Origin: a virus
Virus record (IMG/VR): IMGVR_UViG_3300027969_000044
Location: 32,001 to 96,000 of that record
Reading direction: 5' to 3' (one strand)
Length of the DNA: 64,000 nt
Part shown: in pieces, positions 13,951-25,977 of the stretch
Position numbering within the stretch: position 1 is the stretch's first letter
How the letters are laid out: the number at the start of each line of letters is the position of its first letter
Notes under the pieces: model-generated
The model's database searches: none
Seen by the model: the letters and a program-made list of their open reading frames with translations, nothing else
Told to the model about the DNA's origin: nothing
Program-made: the position numbers and the translations under genes

Positions 13951-14793
13951 ATGACAGATTATTACCACGCCCTTGGTGTTCAAAAGGGAGCTTCAGATGA
14001 TGAGATTAAAAAGGCTTATCGCAAACTGGCGATGAAGCACCATCCTGACCGCGGTGGCGATGCATCTGAATTTCAAAAGATACAAGAAGCATACGCCACA
14101 CTTAGTGATCCACACAAAAGAACAGAGTATGATAACCCCACTCCACAGTTTGGCGGCGGATCGGGGTTCCCTCCCGGATTCGAAGAAATGTTTCGAAACG
14201 GACAATTTGGAGATATGTTTGGAGGAGGTAACCCATTCTTTGGAGCAGGCTTTGGACGACAACCTCGACAATCAAAGAATAGAGACATAAGCCTCGAAAC
14301 ACAAGTTACATTAGAAGATGCCTTTTCCGGCAAGACAATTATGGCGAACATAAATTTGCCTAGCGGAAGAGAGCAAGTACTAGAAATTAAAATACCCCCC
14401 GGAATTAGCACAGGTCAACGCCTAAGACTACAAGGAATGGGCGATGATTCAAATCCGCATTTAAACAAAGGTGACATATACATTACCATTCATGTAGCAA
14501 GACACAGTACATATGAAAGAGAAGGCGATGATTTAATTACAGAAATTACTATTTCGGTCTGGGATGCTATGTTAGGAACCGATACAACTATTAAAACTCT
14601 CGACAACAGACAATTACAAGTAGGAATTCCAGCAGGAACGCAACCGGGTAGTACATTACGATTAGCAGGATACGGAATGTCAAACATACAAGATAGTCGG
14701 TTTAAAGGAAATATTTTATTAAACATTAATGTTAATGTACCTACTAATTTAACTGAAGAACAAAAAAATCTAGTTAAACAACTTAAGGCGTAA
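13951..14793 (+). CDS. DnaJ-family co-chaperone without zinc finger (CbpA-like)
   Basis: J-domain with HPD, G/F-rich linker and C-terminal substrate-binding domains. Confidence 0.92.
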
Positions 14794-14801
14794 ATATCGA
14801 T

Positions 14802-15305
14802 ATGCTAGAAATTAAAAAATTCCCCGACCCAATTTTAAAAGAACGTCTACAAGACTTTGATTTTGAAAATCCAGTAATGGATCCTGTAGAACTTGAACGC
14901 GAAATGTTAGCAACTATGTTTGCCAACAACGGTATCGGTCTTGCAGCAAATCAAGTTGGGATTAATGCCCGCGTGTTTGTAATGGGTTCTAAAGAAAACT
15001 TTTTAATGGCTAAAGCGTACTTTAATCCAAAGGTGCTTGCCAATACAGATACACTACAAGAACTGGAGGAAGGATGTTTGAGTTTTTCCAATATTTTTGT
15101 TAAAATAAAAAGACCAGATGCTATTAAGGTTGAATATCAAAATTCAAAAGGTGAAACTGAAACTTCAGAATTTAGTGGGTGGGACTGTAGAGTGTTTCTA
15201 CACGAATTTGATCATTTGGAAGGTATTACTTTCCAGGATCGAACTAGCCAACTTAAATGGGCATTAGCAATTAAGAAATCAAAACCTAAAAGGAAAGTAA
15301 AATAA
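14802..15305 (+). CDS. def: Peptide deformylase
   Basis: GIGLAANQ, EGCLS and HEFDH motifs. Confidence 0.95.
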   Translation: MLEIKKFPDPILKERLQDFDFENPVMDPVELEREMLATMFANNGIGLAANQVGINARVFVMGSKENFLMAKAYFNPKVLANTDTLQELEEGCLSFSNIFVKIKRPDAIKVEYQNSKGETETSEFSGWDCRVFLHEFDHLEGITFQDRTSQLKWALAIKKSKPKRKVK

Positions 15306-15306
15306 T

Positions 15307-17595
15307 ATGATATTGGAACCAAACAGCGATCTTGAACAGATTTTTGAAAGAGCAGTTAATCTTGCCATTAAGAATCAGCACGAGTATATAACACTTGAGC
15401 ATTTCTTACACAGCATGGTCGTTGATCAAAAGTTTGGAGCATTGCTCAAGGACTTTGGAGCAGAGGTAGCTGACCTAAAAGCTAACCTAGAAAACTTCAT
15501 CGATAAAGAACTAGACGATATCAAGGTAGTTGCTAAAGATCAAAAGCCAAAGAAAACAAACACAGTTGAGCGTATGCTTAATCGTGCGTTTACACAGGTA
15601 TTGTTTAGCGGACGTAATGTAATTGATCCAGTTGATTGCTTTATTAGCCTGTTTGCCGAAAAGAAGAGTTTTGCCAACTACTTTTTACGTAAAGCTAAAG
15701 TAGACAAAGATGCGTTTATTAAATGGATTAATGAAGAAAATTCTAAAGACGAAGAAGAAGGCAGCGAAGGCGGCCGTGGTGGTGGTAGAGACTTAGATCG
15801 TTTGATTGGAAAGTATTGTGTTAACCTAACACAAAAAGTAAAGAACAAACAAATTGATCCTGTTATTGGCCGCGAAAAAGAGATCGAAGAAATTCAACTG
15901 GTACTTGCTCGCCGTACAAAGTCAAACGTTATGATGATCGGTGATCCGGGTGTAGGTAAGACTGCTATTGCTGAAGGTCTAGCACGTAAGATCTTTGAAG
16001 GTAGCGTTCCTAAATTTATTTTAAATCACACAGTTTATAGTCTAGACATCAGTGCTATGATCGCAGGTAGCAAATATCGCGGTGACTTTGAAGAACGTTT
16101 GAAAGGTGTTATTAAAGCACTTGAAAATAAGAAAGACGCTATTTTGTTTATCGACGAAGCACACATGATGAATGGTGCTGGATCAGCAGGTAGTGGTTCT
16201 AATGACATGTCTAATATGCTTAAACCAGCATTGGGCAAAGGTACTATTAAAGTTGTAGCAAGTACAACATGGGAAGAGTTCCGTAAACACTTTGAAAAAG
16301 ATCGTGCGTTGATGCGTCGATTCCAGCGTGTAGTTGTTAACGAACCTAACGAAGCTACCGCCATTAAGATCATCAAAGGTCTTAAAAAGTATTACGAAAA
16401 ACATCACGGTGTTAAGATTACAAATCAGGCCATTATTGATAGTGTTAAGTATTCTATCAAATACATGACTGATAAGAAGTTGCCAGATAAGGCAATTGAC
16501 TTAATTGACTGTGCGTGTGCTCGCTTTAAGGTTAGAGATCAGGAAGCAGGTATTGTTGATCACGACGAAATCTTGTTTGAAGTTAGTAAGATCGCAAACT
16601 TGCCTTTAGATCAAATTGCATCTAAAGAAAACAAGAATCTTGTTAACCTTGAAAAGAATATGCGTGGTAAGGTGTTTGGTCAAGAGAAAGCAATTGAAAT
16701 TCTGCTTGATAAAATCTTTATCGCACAAGCAGGGTTAAAGAGTATTAACAAACCAGTTGGTAACTTCTTGTTTGTTGGTCCAACTGGTGTTGGTAAAACT
16801 GAAACTGCTAAACAATTAGCAAGTAATATGAGTGTAGAACTTGTTCGCTTTGATATGAGCGAATTCCAAGAACAACATTCTGTTGCCAAGTTTATTGGTG
16901 CTCCTCCGGGATATGTGGGCTTTGAAGACAACGCAGGTCAGTTGATCACTAAACTACAAGAACATCCTAACTGTATCTTGTTACTTGACGAGATTGAAAA
17001 AGCTCACCCAAGTGTAGCAAACGTTCTACTACAACTTATGGATAACGGTTATGTTACTGGTTCAAATGGAAAAGTAGCAGACGGTCGTAATTGTATTTTG
17101 ATTATGACCAGTAACCTAGGTGCCGCTGATGCTGAAAAGAACGCGGTAGGATTTGGCAGTTTAGAACGTGATGATGACAGCAAAGATGCTATTAACACAT
17201 TCTTTAAACCCGAGTTTCGGAACCGTTTAGACGGCATTATCAAGTTTGGCAAGTTGGATCAAACTACTATGGTTAAGATTGTTAAGAAGTTTATTGACGA
17301 ACTTAATTCATTGTTAAAAGATCGCCATGTTCATGTTAAGCCCGATGCTGACGCAGTTGAGCTATTGATCAAGAAAGGCTTTAACAGTAAAATGGGCGCT
17401 CGTCCACTAGCACGTACTATTGACGACTTAATCAAGAAGCCGTTAAGTAAGCAGATTCTTTTTGGCAACTTACAAAATGGCGGATTAGTAGAAATACTAG
17501 TTAAAGGCGATGACCTTATGCTAAATTACATCGAAACATTACCAGTTGTTGATGTGAAAGCCGAAGAGATACAAATTGAAGACGCTGGAAACTAA
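15307..17595 (+). CDS. clpA: ClpA-type AAA+ unfoldase
   Basis: Clp N-domain, two Walker A motifs ([16 protein letters not shown]), no long ClpB M-domain, VGF ClpP-docking loop. Confidence 0.9.
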
Positions 17596-18764: not shown

Positions 18765-19154
18765 ATGAAACTTCTCGAATTCTTCGGAAAACCTATAGAA
18801 ATACACCAGGATAAAAACGATTCCCGTAAACCGGGAGAAGATCCTAAGTTAAATCGCGAAGAAGAAGATCAGCTTGCTAACGATATATTAGAGTATATCC
18901 TTAACAACGACGAGCTACACAAAAAGCAGTTTTTACCCGTAGCAAGAAAACTCCACAAAAACCCAACAACACATCACAAGCCTGATGTATGGCTACCTTT
19001 AGTAAACAAAGGATGTATGGAGTTTTACAAAGAACGAGATATGAGTGGCGATCCAATGGATCTATTCAATAAAGAATTTAGGTCTGACTTATGTAAGAAA
19101 TTTTCAGACCATAACAAACACATCCTCATGGGTGAATACAATCTCGGAAGATAA
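18765..19154 (+). CDS. Candidate capsid-internal protein
   Basis: N-terminus MKLLEFF; TAAATA at 18707-18712 upstream. Confidence 0.55.
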   Translation: MKLLEFFGKPIEIHQDKNDSRKPGEDPKLNREEEDQLANDILEYILNNDELHKKQFLPVARKLHKNPTTHHKPDVWLPLVNKGCMEFYKERDMSGDPMDLFNKEFRSDLCKKFSDHNKHILMGEYNLGR

Positions 19155-19157
19155 CCC

Positions 19158-22100
19158 ATGCTATTAAATGAATTTTTTAAAAGATCATTAACCGAGGGCG
19201 GAAATCTTGCCATTGGTCAAGATCAAGCGCAAAGCATTGATTTAAAAGTACACAACAGAGCTTTTATAGTTCCTATACTTACAAAACTATTATACGGAAT
19301 TAACGATGGGTTTGCCGCAGTTAATCAAAAGCCATTGTGGAATCCCGCCCTATTACAAAAGGGAGAATTCCTAAGCGGCTCTAGTTTACATTTCTTCAAC
19401 ACAAAGATTCCCGACGAGCAATTTGAAAAAGTTAAACCTAAAGTAGGCGACATTGACACACAAGTTGATAAGTTAATGGAGAAAGAACTAGAAGGATGGT
19501 TAAACTCTGTTAAGGGTAAACTTATTGGCGGAGGTAAGTTAATTGGCTTTGAGAGAGGCAACGAGCAATACAGTAGTCTATGGGAATTACAAGACCCTCC
19601 TATTAAAATACAAATTGACTTAGAGTTTGTTGCGTTTGACAAAGAAGAACCAACAGCATGGAGTAAATTTAGTCACTCAAGTGATTGGGAAGATATACAA
19701 GCAGGTGTCAAAGGTGTATTCCACAAATGGTTGATACAGTCATTTACAGATCTAACTACTCGTGATTTCTTATTGCGTAAACTAGTAGGTCGCGGCAAAG
19801 CCCGTGTTGAGCAAGATGTACCTGCCAATGACAACTTATTATCCTTTGCTGTTAGCAGTAAAGAAGGTGGCGGACTACGTCCTAAGTACGAGCCAGTGAC
19901 AGACGAAGCTGGACAGCCGTTAATTGTAGACGGGCTACCTGTTATGCGAGCATTGCCTCCTGCGGGATACGAACAAGACATTGGTAAGATATTTGCTCTA
20001 ATCTTTGGAGACAGAATTGATCCTAAGAAAGCAAAACAACTAAGCACTAAGTTTTGGTCATTTACTGGCTTGCTAGATGTAATGACACAGGTGTTAAGTC
20101 CTGAAGAACAACAACAAGTTGTACAGGCATTTATACATAAACTGTATGACAAGGGCGCACAAGGTCTTTATAAAAATGATCCAGAACGTGATGCCGAAGA
20201 AAAAGATGCCGCTATGGCCAAGATGCTTGAAGTATTAAAAATAGCGCCTCCTCCAGAACTAGCACAGATGAAGCAGTCATATCAAGCAAATTACAGAATG
20301 ACTACAAATGAAAGCCTGCGTGAAGCTGAAGAACCAGCACCAGTTAAGGCACAGCTACGCAAAGGTATGCCACACTTACACGATCTAAAGGCTCCTGATT
20401 TTTTAGACCTATTAGATGAGATTCACGACGGCAACGGTAACTTCAAGTTACAAAACGTTCCATTAAATGTCAAAGTAGACGGCTTTGGTGGACGATTTGG
20501 TAAAGATGCTAACGGTAAACCATTCATGGGTACTAGCCGAACAGAGCCACGTTACGAAGCCAGCTTTGTCAAGTATCATCAACAAAAGGGCACAACAGAT
20601 CCAGAGATCTTAGGTCGTGCTCAAATGTTTGACGACTTGTTTAAAGAAATGATGAACGCTATTAAACTAGTCGATGGCAAACTAGGCCCAGACTTTTTAA
20701 TCAACAAACAAGTAACTTGTGAAGTATTGTTCTTACCATTTGCTACACAAACTGACGAAGGTCGTTTAAAGTTTGTGGGCATTGAATACGATCAACTACC
20801 ACAAGGTGTACAACTGGCACTAGTTCCATTTCATGCTGTAGAAGCAGATAGTGGAGAGCCTGTTGAAGATCCAGAATTTATTGATAGCTTACTTGAAGTA
20901 GGTAATCAAGGTAGTGTTATGTTTATTAACAATAGACTAGCACAGAAAGAAGGACTTGACGTTACAGAAATTATCAATGTATTAGATAACATTGAAGAAC
21001 TAAAACAAATTGTATCTGATACAGCAGGCAAGCGTGACCGCGCTAGTCTACAGTTAAAGAAAGAAGTAGAAGAAAAACTACAACCTATTAAAGATCAATT
21101 AGAGCAAGCAATTATTAAAGATCCTAACATTATTGGAAAAGATATGTTAGGTAAAGACTATGAAGGCATTGTTATTAACAGTCGTCTCGGTCCTATCAAA
21201 ATTACCAGTCAAGAACAGCGTGATGTTATCAGTGCCAAGTTAGATGCTAAGAAAAATGCTCGCACAGAACGTCCCCGTGATAATCAAAACAAGACAGCAG
21301 TAGTTGCCATTGGTAGCTTTGTTGGACACAAGGGTCATCAAGAACTTTGGCAGTATACACAACAAGAAGCCCAAACACTGGGCGGCGATCCGTATTTGTT
21401 CATCGGTAATGCCGAAGGCAAAGACGATCCTATTCCTGTTCCCGACAAACTTAAAACATGGCACATGTTGTATCCGCAGTTTGCCAAAAACATCAGCGCG
21501 GTTACGCACGAAGGTGGAAGCATTATGCAGAAGATTAAACACGAGTTGATTAATCCTTTACCAGGCAAGCCTCCACGTTACGACAATATTGTTATTATGG
21601 TTGGCGAAGATCGTAAAGACTTACCGTTAGGTAAAGCTCTAATGAAAGCTGTTAATAAGTTTCCAGGATACGAGCACGTTAAAGTAGACTTAAAAGTTAC
21701 TCCACGTGGTCAAGGAGTAAGCGGCACTGCTCTTAGAAATATTCTAAAGACAGGCAACCCTAACCAACAATACACATTCTGGAATGACACATTTAACGGT
21801 GGCAAGTTTGGATCACAACAATTAACTCCAGAATGGATTAAACACCTAATGGATGTAACCAAGAAAGGTATGGGCATTACTACCCCTTCAGTTACAGCAC
21901 CAATTAAGAAACAGGAACAACCAACTATGGCTAAACCTCAACAACCAGTACAGCAACAGCAACCAGAGCAAGAGCCGTTAGCTGAAAGTATCCGTAGAGA
22001 AATTATGATTACTCGAGCAGAGATTGCTTGGCAGAAAGAATTGTCGGAAGCAAGGATGAGTGCTGCCGTTAAACTTCAACGAGCCTTTGATAGAGAGCGT

Positions 22101-23633
22101 TCTAAGAGTGACGCTAGTCGTCAACGTGCTGACGCGGCCAAGGCAGCGTTTGAGAAAGAGTGGAAAGCTAAACAAGAAAAAGAAAAGCAAGGTGTGGCAG
22201 AAGATTTAGAAACAGGACATGTGCAAATGCTTTTACATAAAGCATTACAGGCACGCAGAGAAGGCAAACCATTGCAAAGTGTAATGCGTAAAGAAGAAAT
22301 TGCATTATTATCTATGTTGCAAGGAAGTGGAAAACTACAAGGTATGGTTAAAAATAAAAGTGTAGGCGAGGCGCCAATTGAAATGGATCCTGCAGAACCA
22401 ATGAATCCTACAATCTACGGACATCAAGGAGTTAACTCTGCCGAATTAAAAACTCGCATGATGCGAGCTCAAGGACAATTAGCAGACCTGGCAAAGAGAG
22501 CACAAAACGCTAGCCCAATTGAATGGGAAATAATTACACGTAATTTTAAAGAGTTGTCAATGAACATTGAACAGATTCGTCACGCACTAGAAGAACTAGC
22601 TAAAGTTCGCAAGCGTGGTGGGATTCGATCTAGAGGCATTGATAAAAATATTGGTGAGCAAGGTGTGGCGGAAGGCTTATTAGACCCTTCTAAAAGAACT
22701 CAGCTTATTCGTTTCCTAGCAAAGAAAATGGATTGGGAAGTTAACTATCTCGAACTTGCTACTGATCATGAACTTATCAAATGGTACAAAAAAGTACAAG
22801 CCGGTCAAGATCCAATGAAGGAAGATTCGGTAAATGAATTAGTTGGTTATAAAAGCGATAAAAATTATCTAGCGGTAGGTACCCATAAACGATACGATGT
22901 ATATGTGGGTAAAAAGAAGTTTAATAATTTATACTTTATTGCAATTGCAGAAAATCCAAGAACATTAGATGCTAAATTTAAAGCCAAGGGCAATACTCCA
23001 CAAGAGGCAGTAAATAATTTAAAATTAGAAATTGATAAAGAAATTGATGTTGCTACCAAAGTTAGTGGTGCGGCTATATTAGATTTTAATGTAGATTTTG
23101 TAAAAGAAATATTAGAAATGAGTATTGATACGTTTTACGCTAAAATTATTTCAGGTCCTAAATTAGTAATAGCAGGTAGAGAAATGATGGAATACCCTGA
23201 TATTATGAAAAGTGAAGGGTTTAAACCTAGTACCATTAGAACTTACAAAGGCGGAGAAGGTACTACTAAACTACCCGGAGTACCATTAAGCGCCGGAGCG
23301 GCTGCGGCTGCAAGTCTTATTGCCAACGGTAGATATGTATTAGGCGCAGAAACTACAGATAAAGACGGTAACAGAGTATTCAATTTAGAATTTGATAGCG
23401 TTGTTCAAGCATCAAACGATAAAATGAGATTAAGAGCACCTGCGGTTACTGTAGGAACTAATAGATCACAAGGTGTTGCGGAGGCCGGTAAGATTAAGGG
23501 CGCTGACGGTAAAGCCTGTTGGAAAGGTTATAAGTACGCAGGTACTAAGAACGGTAAAGACAAGTGTGTTCCAGTTAGCGAAGATGCGGAACAACTAATG
23601 GCAGGTTTTATTAAGTTGTTGGAATCAAAGTAA
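19158..23633 (+). CDS. Large multidomain protein: Pol-beta-like NTase + ligase-like KxDG domain + HxGH nucleotidyltransferase + modular C-terminal cargo; candidate internal head polyprotein
   Basis: LSGS...GDID...QIDL; NVKVDG...EGIV...IKI; GHKGH...VGEDR...SGTALR; QGVAE three times; CWKGY...CVP terminal module. Confidence 0.7.
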   Translation: MLLNEFFKRSLTEGGNLAIGQDQAQSIDLKVHNRAFIVPILTKLLYGINDGFAAVNQKPLWNPALLQKGEFLSGSSLHFFNTKIPDEQFEKVKPKVGDIDTQVDKLMEKELEGWLNSVKGKLIGGGKLIGFERGNEQYSSLWELQDPPIKIQIDLEFVAFDKEEPTAWSKFSHSSDWEDIQAGVKGVFHKWLIQSFTDLTTRDFLLRKLVGRGKARVEQDVPANDNLLSFAVSSKEGGGLRPKYEPVTDEAGQPLIVDGLPVMRALPPAGYEQDIGKIFALIFGDRIDPKKAKQLSTKFWSFTGLLDVMTQVLSPEEQQQVVQAFIHKLYDKGAQGLYKNDPERDAEEKDAAMAKMLEVLKIAPPPELAQMKQSYQANYRMTTNESLREAEEPAPVKAQLRKGMPHLHDLKAPDFLDLLDEIHDGNGNFKLQNVPLNVKVDGFGGRFGKDANGKPFMGTSRTEPRYEASFVKYHQQKGTTDPEILGRAQMFDDLFKEMMNAIKLVDGKLGPDFLINKQVTCEVLFLPFATQTDEGRLKFVGIEYDQLPQGVQLALVPFHAVEADSGEPVEDPEFIDSLLEVGNQGSVMFINNRLAQKEGLDVTEIINVLDNIEELKQIVSDTAGKRDRASLQLKKEVEEKLQPIKDQLEQAIIKDPNIIGKDMLGKDYEGIVINSRLGPIKITSQEQRDVISAKLDAKKNARTERPRDNQNKTAVVAIGSFVGHKGHQELWQYTQQEAQTLGGDPYLFIGNAEGKDDPIPVPDKLKTWHMLYPQFAKNISAVTHEGGSIMQKIKHELINPLPGKPPRYDNIVIMVGEDRKDLPLGKALMKAVNKFPGYEHVKVDLKVTPRGQGVSGTALRNILKTGNPNQQYTFWNDTFNGGKFGSQQLTPEWIKHLMDVTKKGMGITTPSVTAPIKKQEQPTMAKPQQPVQQQQPEQEPLAESIRREIMITRAEIAWQKELSEARMSAAVKLQRAFDRERSKSDASRQRADAAKAAFEKEWKAKQEKEKQGVAEDLETGHVQMLLHKALQARREGKPLQSVMRKEEIALLSMLQGSGKLQGMVKNKSVGEAPIEMDPAEPMNPTIYGHQGVNSAELKTRMMRAQGQLADLAKRAQNASPIEWEIITRNFKELSMNIEQIRHALEELAKVRKRGGIRSRGIDKNIGEQGVAEGLLDPSKRTQLIRFLAKKMDWEVNYLELATDHELIKWYKKVQAGQDPMKEDSVNELVGYKSDKNYLAVGTHKRYDVYVGKKKFNNLYFIAIAENPRTLDAKFKAKGNTPQEAVNNLKLEIDKEIDVATKVSGAAILDFNVDFVKEILEMSIDTFYAKIISGPKLVIAGREMMEYPDIMKSEGFKPSTIRTYKGGEGTTKLPGVPLSAGAAAAASLIANGRYVLGAETTDKDGNRVFNLEFDSVVQASNDKMRLRAPAVTVGTNRSQGVAEAGKIKGADGKACWKGYKYAGTKNGKDKCVPVSEDAEQLMAGFIKLLESK

Positions 23634-24040
23634 TGCTATTAACACAGCTATTTGAATCAGCAACTAATGACGCAACCCTAATGGATATGTTGCCTACGTT
23701 CTTACCTTTAGCTTTAGAAATTTTAGAATTACGCAACGTGCCTAATATTAAATTAGAAAAGTTTATTGACGACGAAGTACAACCTACATTTGGTAAATTT
23801 GTCAGTGATGAGAACATAATTTACTTAGGAATTGCCAACAGACACCCTGTAGATATTTTACGTACACTGGCACACGAAATGGTACATTATAAACAAAACA
23901 TAGAGCACGATCTAGATAGCGAATCAGGTCGCACAGGAAGTCCTCAAGAAAATCAAGCACATGAAATTGCCGGAGTTATTATGCGAGAGTTTAATAAAGC
24001 AAATCCAGAATTCCTAAAAGCTAGGCCATTAGAGTTTTAA
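23633..24040 (+). CDS. Small HExxH zinc metallopeptidase-like protein
   Basis: LRTLAHEMVHYKQ followed by ENQA; N-terminus MLLTQLFE. Confidence 0.75.
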   Translation: MLLTQLFESATNDATLMDMLPTFLPLALEILELRNVPNIKLEKFIDDEVQPTFGKFVSDENIIYLGIANRHPVDILRTLAHEMVHYKQNIEHDLDSESGRTGSPQENQAHEIAGVIMREFNKANPEFLKARPLEF

Positions 24041-24051
24041 TAAATACCCAT

Positions 24052-24435
24052 ATGAGAGCAAACGAATTTATTTCTGAAAATCGCAAAGCAGGCAAAGTAA
24101 AGAAACGTGCCGCGGCTGTACAGCAAGGCATTAGAAAGTCTCGCGATGTTGGCGGATATGATCGTGTAAATCACATGAATCGTTTGTGGATGGCAACTGC
24201 TATGGCAGACGGCCAAAGTAAAAAAGGTGTAGATATGGATAGTTACAGTTGGATGGAAAAATACAACACACAACATCCATATACACAAGAAGAATACAAT
24301 ATGTTCAGGCAAGCAGAAAATACTGTCCCAACGGATAGTAAAGAAGTTACACCATGGACAAAGAGTGTAGAGCCAGAAGATACTTATAAAGTAAGTCCGT
24401 CCTCTACATGGAATGTTAAGAAGAAAAAGAAATGA
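24052..24435 (+). CDS. Candidate capsid-internal protein
   Basis: N-terminus MRANEFISE; basic; TAAATA 5 nt before the ATG. Confidence 0.65.
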   Translation: MRANEFISENRKAGKVKKRAAAVQQGIRKSRDVGGYDRVNHMNRLWMATAMADGQSKKGVDMDSYSWMEKYNTQHPYTQEEYNMFRQAENTVPTDSKEVTPWTKSVEPEDTYKVSPSSTWNVKKKKK

Positions 24436-24608
24436 AGATTAGAGAATTATTAGAAGCGGCAAGTAGCGGAGCAACTGGCTCCGGTTCTATTGCGACCGTA
24501 ACTAATCCTGGTGGGAAACCAGCTAGTCAAGTAGGATCTCTGTTTGGTGGTACTTACGGAGAATCTAAAAAAACTAAACCTAAAAAATTTATTAAGAGAC
24601 CGCAATGA
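24432..24608 (+). CDS. Small candidate capsid-internal protein (58 aa, below the ORF-track cutoff)
   Basis: MKIRELLEAASSGATGSGSIATV...KKFIKRPQ*; ATGA overlaps with both neighbours. Confidence 0.7.
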   Translation: MKIRELLEAASSGATGSGSIATVTNPGGKPASQVGSLFGGTYGESKKTKPKKFIKRPQ

Positions 24609-25645
24609 CTAAAAAAATAAAAGAAATTAGTACAGGTGACTATTACTCTAAAGCACACAAGGGGAAAATTTCTGCAGCATCTAAAATGATGTTTGCTGAT
24701 CCTGCTAAGCCAGAAGTACAAAAAGCAATGCGTGACTTTAAGAATAGAGACGCAGGAATGAAACGTGTTTCAGCAAGAAATCAAAAAGCCAGACAGACAA
24801 CTGCTGATAAGAACCGTCAGGGTGCCCTTGCAGCCGATAAAGAAAATCTTCCAGCGTTAATGGCACAGTTTCAAAAGCTAAGAGGTCAGTATGATCCTAA
24901 TTTTGAATACAGTGACGATCACAGTTTTTGGTCAAAGCAAAAAGATATCCAGCAACAATTAAGTGCGTTACAAAAACGTATTAACGATGCTGGTGGAAAA
25001 GTATCAGAGGGAACTAATCCCGAGTATGACGACGAAGCAGGTATGTCTGATAATAATCTAGAAACACTGAGAAGAACAATCGACGGCATAGATGGTTTGA
25101 TTAAGCCCGGTGATAATTTACCAGAATGGTGTCAGGAAAAAATTGCTGTTGCCAAATCTATGTTAGTAGCAGTATGGGACTACATGCAGTCCGAACAGGA
25201 AAGAGGCGCAATGGAAGGTGTTGGCGATTTAGGATATGACGCACAATCTTTAATAATGAAACTGCGACGAGATGTTGAAGAAAAAAGATTACAACCAACT
25301 CCGCAAGCAGTATTAGCGGCCGCATCAGAATTAGCAGGAGATATGAAATTTGCTCCTCAACTACTAGTTCAACAAGTCTTGGGCAAGGGTGTAGCAGAAG
25401 GCGGTGTTAAAGAATGGAAAAAGGGAGTCAAGGCTCCGGTTAAACCACGTAACTTTGTAGCCAAAAATGCGTCAACTGGCGGTGCTGGCGCACATAAAGA
25501 TAAAAAGAAAGATGCTAAACAAGGAAAAGCCAAGCATAAAAAAACTCCAGAGTTAGCCGAAACAGCAACATATGATCGTAGATTAAATGTATTATTAGAA
25601 GCGAAAATGCTAACTAGCCAAATTAGAGATTATAGAAAGAAATAA
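24605..25645 (+). CDS. Modular candidate capsid-internal protein
   Basis: Segments separated by IKE, VSE, AME, KGVAE, LAE and LLE; contains an LPEWCQEKI...DYM module. Confidence 0.65.
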   Translation: MTKKIKEISTGDYYSKAHKGKISAASKMMFADPAKPEVQKAMRDFKNRDAGMKRVSARNQKARQTTADKNRQGALAADKENLPALMAQFQKLRGQYDPNFEYSDDHSFWSKQKDIQQQLSALQKRINDAGGKVSEGTNPEYDDEAGMSDNNLETLRRTIDGIDGLIKPGDNLPEWCQEKIAVAKSMLVAVWDYMQSEQERGAMEGVGDLGYDAQSLIMKLRRDVEEKRLQPTPQAVLAAASELAGDMKFAPQLLVQQVLGKGVAEGGVKEWKKGVKAPVKPRNFVAKNASTGGAGAHKDKKKDAKQGKAKHKKTPELAETATYDRRLNVLLEAKMLTSQIRDYRKK

Positions 25646-25707: not shown

Positions 25708-25977
25708 ATGAGCAAAGCATTTGGCGCCCCAGAACAAGCAAAGATTAAACAGATTGTTTCAGAGGGCATGACAGTTATGCAAGAAATTCAAGACCTAACA
25801 GAAGGCTTGAACGAAACAATTAAAGCTGTCGCAGAAGAACTAGAAGTTAAACCTAGCGTGATCAAAAAAGCGATTAAAATTGCGCTTAAAGATCAATGGG
25901 ATCAAGTATTCCGCGAGTTTGACGATTTGGAAACTATTGTTGATATTAGTGGTCATAGCTTCCGCAAGGAAGATTAA
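25708..25977 (+). CDS. Small dsDNA-binding protein (T4 DsbA / GapR-like)
   Basis: Coiled coil followed by IKAVAEELEVKPSVIKKAIK, typical of this fold; 89 aa. Confidence 0.55.
   Translation: MSKAFGAPEQAKIKQIVSEGMTVMQEIQDLTEGLNETIKAVAEELEVKPSVIKKAIKIALKDQWDQVFREFDDLETIVDISGHSFRKED

Follow-up and report, generated by a model that had tools for sequence, protein, structure and literature searches.

A nucleotide-conserved joint between exchangeable modules of putative phage cargo polyproteins

A short peptide that recurs between unrelated modules of a phage polyprotein raises the question of what is being conserved: the peptide, as a site for a protease, or the DNA that encodes it, as a place at which modules are gained, lost and swapped. 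We address this question in a 64,000-nucleotide (nt) stretch of viral DNA (the window), bases 32001-96000 of the 166,311-bp IMG/VR virus record IMGVR_UViG_3300027969_000044, which has a GC content of 39% and an estimated completeness of ~46%. The peptide lies in a polyprotein of 1491 amino acids (aa), encoded by the open reading frame (ORF) P0001 (19158-23633, + strand), in which a leader and a conserved enzyme core are followed by seven modules that make up a hypervariable tail, and in the nearby 346-aa ORF P0002 (24605-25645, + strand). The first-pass annotation, made from the letters alone, had placed QGVAE three times in P0001 and KGVAE once in P0002, and its positions for the four coding 15-mers are exact (22188-22202, 22659-22673, 23469-23483 and 25385-25399, all on the + strand and in frame). 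The pattern MARGGNGTNGCNGAR has these four matches in the window against 0.07 expected, none of 100 shuffles reaching four, and a six-frame translation of the whole record revealed no GVAE beyond these four joints. Taken as a whole, our reading of this locus is that it encodes cassettes of capsid-loaded cargo, cut by a protease and exchanged at a DNA joint, which we consider moderately probable.

Module gain, loss and exchange at the joint

We divided the tail of P0001 into modules M1 to M7 (all on the + strand) at hydrophobic-x-Glu sites, and those that the first-pass annotation had listed in addition to QGVAE are present (LAE-943, LSE-964, VGE-1071, VNE-1227 and VSE-1475, together with AME in the 346-aa ORF). 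M1 (aa 944-1015; 21987-22202) is basic and helical and ends in joint 1. It is followed by a cassette block (22203-22673) made up of M2 (aa 1016-1071, ending SVGE) and M3 (aa 1072-1172, starting APIEMD and ending NIGE-QGVAE), and then by M4 (aa 1173-1227; 22674-22838), which ends SVNE. M5 (aa 1228-1442; 22839-23483) is an AT-rich domain of 215 aa that is predicted to fold independently and ends in joint 3, while M6 (aa 1443-1475, CWKGY...CVPVSE) and M7 (aa 1476-1491, the C-terminal 16 aa) complete the protein (23484-23630).

The M2+M3 block is present in the window and missing from three near-identical relatives, the contigs L004, L005 and L006, which come from independent assemblies and share 94-99% DNA identity with the window. 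All three lack window positions 22204-22656. Because the alignments on either side share 18 nt within the joint, it is exactly M2+M3 (157 aa) that is present or absent between two copies of QGVAE, corresponding to an indel of 471 nt between joints 1 and 2. Moreover, L004 and L006 carry longer, different segments in place of 23484-23561, directly after the third QGVAE, with homology resuming before the common C-terminal 24 residues, and in the 346-aa ORF of L006 the right break of a missing stretch (window 25212-25388, 59 aa) falls at the KGVAE joint.

The same behaviour is seen across all fetched loci, where 55 of 262 internal ends of nucleotide homology of at least 85% between contigs lie within 3 nt of the GVAE-coding 12-mer. 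The random expectation is 1.6, with a maximum of 6 in 200 randomisations, giving an excess of ~35-fold. About 10 single cassettes (167-518 nt) are common to different contigs at 85-97% identity, their homology ending at joints on both sides, and one shared cassette is duplicated within an array. The comparative evidence that modules are gained, lost, swapped and duplicated in frame at the joint is strong, and the expectation in the first-pass annotation that module presence and absence would break at the joint is borne out by both the indels and the homology ends.

Modules were also expected to occur separately in other proteins, and they do. A profile-free scan of 1.8 billion representatives returned 690 proteins that match the tail, with matches to M5 and M3 at the start, middle or end of proteins 100-1470 aa long; M5 is found in hundreds of homologues at variable positions and M3 in 82 other proteins. 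Homologues of P0001 itself number more than 729 and range from 958 to 1989 aa, and the part that they have in common is only the first 60-68% of the protein. Motifs of the (Q/K)GVAE type occur in 60 of the 120 listed P0001 homologues, with 99 copies; none of the 120 has GVAE in the conserved core, the most N-terminal copy lying near aa 920.

The joint itself is widespread. At least 120 contig stretches of IMG/VR contain the exact 15-mer CAAGGTGTGGCGGAA. Of the 110 copies in the 80 loci listed, 102 read in frame as QGVAE within ORFs of at least 100 aa, and a single ORF may hold as many as four. The segments between joints, 205 in number with a median of 91 aa, make up 160 families, and Pfam matches in 60 joint-bearing ORFs include DUF6321, GNAT, ParB_N, dCMP deaminase, LysM, GH19, GP88 and NTP_transf_2, with lysozyme and VanY domains also present in the tails of relatives. 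Each of five large records holds one to six copies of the 12-mer, the reversed control giving none, while the 20-mer has six matches in bacterial genomes, only one of which looks real (a 39%-GC phage-like contig in a Bacteroidetes metagenome-assembled genome). In one large record (G002, 524,565 bp) two pairs of joint copies with identical 381-nt spacing lie 347,553 bp apart, which points to this "100% complete" record (the source of locus L090) being, probably, a ~1.5-fold concatemer of a ~348 kb genome.

A sequencing or assembly artefact, whether adapter or chimera, can be ruled out as the source of the joint. The joint is specific to strand and frame, varies at synonymous sites and between K and E, and is shorter than assembler k-mers, and the deletion is found in three independent assemblies.

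Conservation of the joint as a nucleotide sequence

The first-pass annotation had suggested that the similar 15-nt DNA could serve as an exchange element. Nucleotide-level conservation and the breakpoints speak for such a role, but the length needs correction: the codons at P6 and P1' are conserved outside the 15-mer, so the element is ~20 nt long. Its consensus, NAG-CAA-GGT-GTG-GCG-GAA-GGC, reads x-Q-G-V-A-E-G, and the flanks carry no information. Joint 1 (AGCAAGGTGTGGCAGAAGAT, QGVAE; 22186-22205, + strand), the left breakpoint of the 471-nt indel, is identical to the consensus at 17 of 20 positions, and joint 2 (AGCAAGGTGTGGCGGAAGGC, QGVAE; 22657-22676, + strand), the right breakpoint, matches the metagenome-wide consensus at all 20.

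Codon choice at P4, P3 and P2 was counted in 23 joints of five phages picked by protein homology only. Valine at P3 is GTG in 17 of the 23, against 10% in the tails of those phages (p 9e-13), alanine at P2 is GCG in 20 (background 8%, p 5e-20) and glycine at P4 is GGT in 21 (background 41%, p 8e-7). Other V-x-E sites in the same tails use GTG in only 2 of 24 cases, and these phages use GTG for 4-18% of valine codons and GCG for 6-13% of alanine codons. Outside the searched 15-mer, glycine at P1' is GGC in 76 of 96 copies (background 31%, p 8e-22), and the P6 codon is AAG, GAG or CAG in 97 of 164, that is, lysine, glutamate or glutamine with the rare -AG ending in genomes that otherwise prefer AAA, GAA and CAA. 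At P5, where the residue may be Q, K or E, all codons are NAA. In the core, identity between these phages at four-fold sites is no more than 36-49%, a level that we read as close to saturation. Synonymous positions of the joint are thus conserved beyond codon usage, as had been raised in the first-pass annotation. On these counts the joint is constrained as a nucleotide sequence and, because of that constraint, is more than a by-product of a peptide motif. If this holds, it offers a clear example of selection on the synonymous sites of a coding linker.

One explanation for such conservation is that it serves the mRNA, the joint acting as a ribosome-pause or Shine-Dalgarno-like site (AGGUG) that gives each module time to fold, or as the site at which an RNA-binding protein binds or cleaves, and the indels being a side effect of the repeat. 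The AGGUG of the joint is complementary to the anti-Shine-Dalgarno of 16S rRNA, and rare codons (GTG, GCG, NAG) do stand at domain boundaries. However, the most conserved synonymous position, GCG, falls outside the Shine-Dalgarno-like core, no start codon follows the joint at initiation distance, and other V-x-E boundaries lack such a bias. Common codons (CAA, GGT, GAA) are fixed beside the rare ones and the two glycine codons differ (GGT and GGC), so it is specific bases that are kept, not rarity, and rare-codon pausing as the sole cause can be set aside on the same grounds. An mRNA role would also leave unexplained why unrelated contigs share cassettes bounded by joints, and we consider it very unlikely.

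A second explanation invokes a dedicated, phage-encoded enzyme (a site-specific endonuclease, homing nuclease or recombinase) that would cut or recombine the joint DNA and thereby mobilise cassettes, with the QGVAE peptide incidental. Free-standing homing endonucleases are common in T4-like phages, the breakpoints are precise, and a 20-nt element conserved at synonymous sites, and at P5 and P6 across K, E and Q, matches, in its length and in the way it is conserved, what a protein recognition site should look like. On the other side, no candidate enzyme was found: the Pfam matches of 60 polyprotein ORFs include no nuclease or integrase apart from ParB_N, the neighbourhood search not being exhaustive. 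Neither an inverted repeat nor any other feature of recombinase sites is present in the joint, which thus has nothing like an integron attC, and the phage's own genome would hold several target sites for such an enzyme. Since short-homology recombination gives the same patterns without extra parts, a dedicated enzyme of this kind appears unlikely.

The boundaries that carry the universal ~20-nt joint are those at which homology between genomes begins and ends, and the most likely mechanism, in our view, is recombination through short homology, taking place between joints while phages co-infect a cell or replicate. On this model, cassettes whose consensus joints are intact would spread best and so keep the DNA sequence uniform. 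The joint would act at once as a recombination handle and as a protease or linker site, and its use as homology for in-frame recombination is the most economical account of the DNA conservation. A stronger version of this model, in which the joint is the recombination site of a dedicated in-frame cassette-exchange system, possibly recognised by a phage enzyme, and also encodes the protease site that would later release the module in the capsid, is one that we hold only tentatively and rather doubt. If it were true, any module could be plugged into any joint-bearing gene, an arrangement resembling an integron at the level of protein domains that would diversify injected proteins.

Two further candidates were rejected. 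The joint is not a Chi-like genome-wide hotspot, as none of its 7- or 8-mers is over-represented in the 166-kb record relative to a third-order Markov expectation. A guide or antisense RNA partner is likewise excluded in the available half genome, where no opposite-strand copy with five or fewer mismatches was found.

Putative capsid-targeting leaders, predicted protease sites and a proposed cargo cluster

P0001 opens with a leader like a T4 capsid-targeting sequence (CTS), MLLNEFFKRSLTE (19158-19196, + strand), that ends in a hydrophobic-x-Glu site, and its orthologues have comparable leaders (for example MILREFFKRTLLE and MNLREIFNKQMIAE, each followed by GGN). Leaders in the cluster such as MLLNEFF..., MRANEFISE and MKLLEFF... 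are likewise kept in orthologues. The start M-x-x-x-E/Q-F/L-hydrophobic is common to P0001, to the 129-aa ORF at 18765-19154 (+ strand; CTS-like leader MKLLEFFGKPIE, orthologues starting MLLNEFFGK...), to the 127-aa ORF at 24052-24435 (+ strand; CTS-like leader MRANEFISE, orthologues MRATEFINE, MRAKEFVIE and MRARDFIVE) and to an 84-aa ORF next to the portal gene, which starts MLLNEFIYFNE, like the P0001 leader. These leaders reach hydrophobic-x-Glu within 8-13 residues, a feature kept in orthologues, while a 135-aa ORF with an HExxH motif (23633-24040, + strand; leader MLLTQLFE) fits the pattern more loosely. Over 148 module-bearing proteins the leader consensus is M-[KR]-[LI]-x-[ED]-[LIF]-[FL]-x-E, and the leaders of short stand-alone M5 proteins include MRATEFVAE and MKAKEFIIE, one such protein reading MRARDFITE-YRQGVAE-.... 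We take these leaders to resemble that of T4 IPIII. A 280-aa ORF at position 123818 of the record (G000; ~91818 in window coordinates and so outside the window) has the CTS-like leader MKIAELITE followed by SQ, which suggests that more capsid-targeted cargo genes lie elsewhere in the genome.

The internal sites have the same form as the leader ends. In 64 of the 65 proteins whose sequence upstream of M3 is unrelated, [LIVM]-x-E stands immediately before M3 (background 1.7% per position), and the glutamate at P1 is invariant. As M3 itself ends ...NIGE, QGVAE is a separate five-residue spacer after a first site. In the AlphaFold (AF2) model of M5 (pLDDT 88.8) the last six residues, SQGVAE, are disordered (pLDDT 38). 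Ten residues of the T4 CTS suffice for loading, with residues 8 and 10 governing processing (PMC9026906), and the proteases of T4 (gp21), phiKZ and SPN3US cut after glutamate in a three-residue motif (PMC5694885, PMC10052503).

A protease and a capsid of this kind are encoded in the same record. Its T4-type head module comprises a portal, a Peptidase_S77 (gp21-like) prohead protease (PF03420, E 4.6e-27; 131888-132319 of the record), a scaffold-like protein and a gp23-like capsid protein (PF07068, E 9e-81), with the portal and scaffold-like ORFs adjacent. An S77 match was also obtained in three of five other large joint-bearing records. The family-B DNA polymerase is nearest to that of Sinorhizobium phage Phosso (50% identity) and then to those of 350-kb 121Q/Rak2-like phages (45%). 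Judged by this head module and these polymerase affinities, the record is a fragment of an uncultured giant T4-related phage. Calibrating the protease on the cleavage site of the capsid protein proved unusable, as alignment to T4 gp23* leaves LLE-18, CLE-33 and LAE-41 as candidates.

With T4-style leaders, hydrophobic-x-Glu sites, an S77 protease in the same genome and a joint that is disordered in the model, capsid loading followed by cutting by the prohead protease is the best reading of these proteins and is well motivated. P0001 and its neighbours would form a cluster of capsid-loaded cargo proteins, each with a T4-style leader. Each module is bounded by hydrophobic-x-Glu, and these sites would most likely be cut inside the prohead by the gp21-type (S77) protease, one precursor giving rise to many small proteins that travel with the DNA.

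Alternatively, these could be plain multi-domain enzymes of the cytoplasm that undergo no packaging or cutting, with QGVAE a flexible linker inherited along with shuffled domains. The cluster sits among replication and chaperone genes, and the disorder of the joint is what any linker would show. Such enzymes would, however, hardly account for T4-CTS-like leaders on six neighbouring genes and on stand-alone module proteins, one leader being shared with a head-module ORF, nor for the invariant P1 glutamate and hydrophobic P3 before module starts. Many modules are peptides of 40-100 aa that make little sense as domains of one enzyme, and relatives carry cell-wall hydrolase modules. We regard this alternative as quite unlikely.

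Several points weigh against the picture of capsid-loaded, protease-cut and exchangeable cassettes that we prefer. A generic hydrophobic-x-Glu site would suffice for a gp21-type enzyme, so the protease accounts for these sites but not for the invariant Q-G or the nucleotide conservation. The joint copies are phylogenetically non-independent, the IMG/VR loci were chosen by the exact 15-mer (P6 and P1' lying outside that pattern), and the orthologous joint at the end of M5 shows drift of the valine codon (GTT, GTG, GTA). For homologous recombination to be efficient, 20 nt is a short length, and the joint could be linked to no recombinase or endonuclease. The cluster lies outside the head module and adjoins the genes for ClpB, DnaJ, peptide deformylase and the DNA polymerase. 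A 99%-complete record with five joints gave no S77 match. Finally, a tblastn search of 50,697 phage records matched only aa 8-694 of P0001, no cultured phage among them carrying the tail modules.

The conserved core that precedes the tail (aa 14-943; 19197-21986, + strand) has three nucleotidyltransferase-type signatures and ends EPLAE. It matches phrog_19290, phrog_12709 and phrog_3041 (cytidyltransferase), and its translation contains the motifs GDIDTQVD, KVDG and HKGH. Between the window and L004, the protein encoded by 19158-21986 is 99% identical and the four-fold sites only 80% identical, which points to strong purifying selection on the triple-nucleotidyltransferase core. No peptidase domain was found inside P0001 itself.

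The modules of the tail are less easily assigned. A Pfam search of M1 to M7 gave no match, and a search of the ESM Atlas with M3 gave none that was usable. The model of M5 has no convincing match in the PDB (Foldseek E of 0.03 or higher; best VIA Z 6.3, for a match confined to one 60-residue subdomain), and the only viral proteins that it matches, weakly, are uncharacterised ones of rhizobiophages. The impression in the first-pass annotation of an AT-rich segment here is real: GC is 0.29-0.31 over 22750-23199, the first half of M5, compared with 0.38-0.47 in the flanks. A small cysteine-containing motif, CW[KP]GY..G.K...G..V.NCVP[VI].E, is found in M6 (23484-23582) and in the tails of L004 and L006; very many tails carry it at their C-terminal end, and it is also present in stand-alone proteins. 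In P0002, a basic stretch (aa 282-314) matches the 39-aa phrog_1359.

The 135-aa ORF that directly follows P0001 carries the metallopeptidase-like motif HEMVH (HExxH) and matches phrog_87 "metallo-protease" (E 3.9e-7), its Pfam metallopeptidase matches being faint and below the cut-off. Joint-bearing polyproteins of L069 and L012 carry this domain fused at their C-terminus, and in the more distant relatives L007-L010 the ORF is not at the corresponding position. It could be a packaged metallopeptidase cassette, and it is an alternative or additional candidate for the processing protease.

The order of genes around the cluster is kept in related metagenomic contigs: holin-like, DnaJ, peptide deformylase, ClpB, three small ORFs, the 1491-aa ORF, small ORFs, a second variable ORF and the DNA polymerase. 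A search of IMG/VR with peptide patterns found no close relatives, and relatives were then obtained from a protein collection. DnaJ, peptide deformylase and a full-length ClpB-type double AAA+ chaperone (13951-17595) lie directly upstream of the cargo cluster, in the same order in all relatives fetched, and it may be no coincidence that a chaperone set stands next to large, putatively packaged polyproteins. In one relative (L008, 1314-5594) a 1426-aa ORF with collagen repeats (PF01391) is inserted just upstream of the cluster. Downstream, the stretch 25745-25891, within an 89-aa ORF (25708-25977), shares 74% identity over 147 nt with Pseudomonas jumbo phage PA5oct and its relatives, and nothing else in the region resembles cultured phages at the nucleotide level; its counterparts there are annotated as "structural protein" or "DsbA double-stranded DNA binding".

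Comparison with known systems

Phages inject proteins that disarm host defences, and we know of little understanding of how such cargo diversifies quickly outside the internal-protein locus of the T-even phages. If our reading is correct, a widespread lineage of uncultured giant phages has its cargo organised as cassettes, with 160 segment families in this sample alone. The 15-20-mer, or the (Q/K)GVAE tag, could then be used to mine metagenomes for candidate packaged effectors and anti-defence proteins, and the arrangement would represent a natural design for the multiplexed delivery of proteins by capsids, extending the T4 CTS packaging already used in engineering.

The internal proteins of T4 (IPI, IPII, IPIII and Alt) are CTS-targeted, gp21-processed and injected cargo with a hypervariable locus (PMC9026906, PMC3012670). 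The proteins studied here resemble them in having a short N-terminal leader that ends in hydrophobic-x-Glu, with a gp21-family protease, a portal and a gp23-like capsid protein in the same genome, and in having cargo that is diverse behind a conserved targeting signal and polymorphic between close relatives. Unlike T4, where one gene specifies one cargo and a single cut, an ORF here has up to seven or more putative cargo modules, predicted internal cut sites and a DNA-conserved joint that links the cassettes.

Polyvalent proteins (Iyer et al. 2017, PMC5512222), found in phages and conjugative elements, combine two to 15 unrelated effector-type domains in one polypeptide, the phages concerned having a portal-terminase system, and are predicted to be packaged, injected and proteolytically released. 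P0001, with three nucleotidyltransferase-type regions and seven tail modules, falls within that range of domain number, and P0001 and its relatives share with polyvalent proteins the combination of many unrelated effector-type domains (GNAT, ParB-like, lysozyme, nucleotidyltransferases, metallopeptidase) in one large protein. As far as that account reaches, processing of polyvalent proteins is ascribed to an embedded zincin-like MPTase, and no conserved inter-domain junction is described for them in peptide or DNA (PMC5512222), whereas the modules studied here meet at explicit hydrophobic-x-Glu sites and at a universal joint of 20 nt.

Junction motifs that delimit exchangeable modules are known from bacterial polymorphic toxins, where VENN in CdiA and PxxxxDPxGL in Rhs are associated with orphan cassettes (Poole et al. 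2011, PMC3150448). As in those systems, a short conserved motif bounds swappable modules, DNA homology starts and stops at the motif-coding sequence, and deletions fuse in frame. The VENN and DPxGL systems are bacterial, with one variable C-terminal toxin and an immunity gene and with orphan arrays outside the expressed gene, whereas the joint described here is phage-borne and has many copies inside one expressed ORF. No cognate immunity genes were seen, the cassettes following one another directly within one ORF with no interposed genes, and the likeness to polymorphic toxins is therefore one of analogy and not of membership.

In the giant phages phiKZ, 201phi2-1 and SPN3US, head and ejection proteins are multiply cleaved and a large mass of ejection proteins is packaged (PMC5694885, PMC10052503). 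Cleavage by their gp21-related protease follows the glutamate of a three-residue motif (A-X-E in SPN3US) and sometimes occurs more than once in a precursor, and in SPN3US all identified cleavages bar the self-cleavage of the protease remove N-terminal propeptides (PMC10052503). The parts of these accounts available to us mention neither cassette arrays nor a conserved DNA joint (PMC5694885, PMC10052503). A full-text literature search likewise found no description of such a joint in the portions of text returned, and a search for QGVAE found only papers on alpha-synuclein. Relative to T4 internal proteins, polyvalent proteins and VENN-type junctions, what sets the system described here apart is the accommodation of many cassettes in one ORF by means of a universal, DNA-conserved joint of 20 nt.

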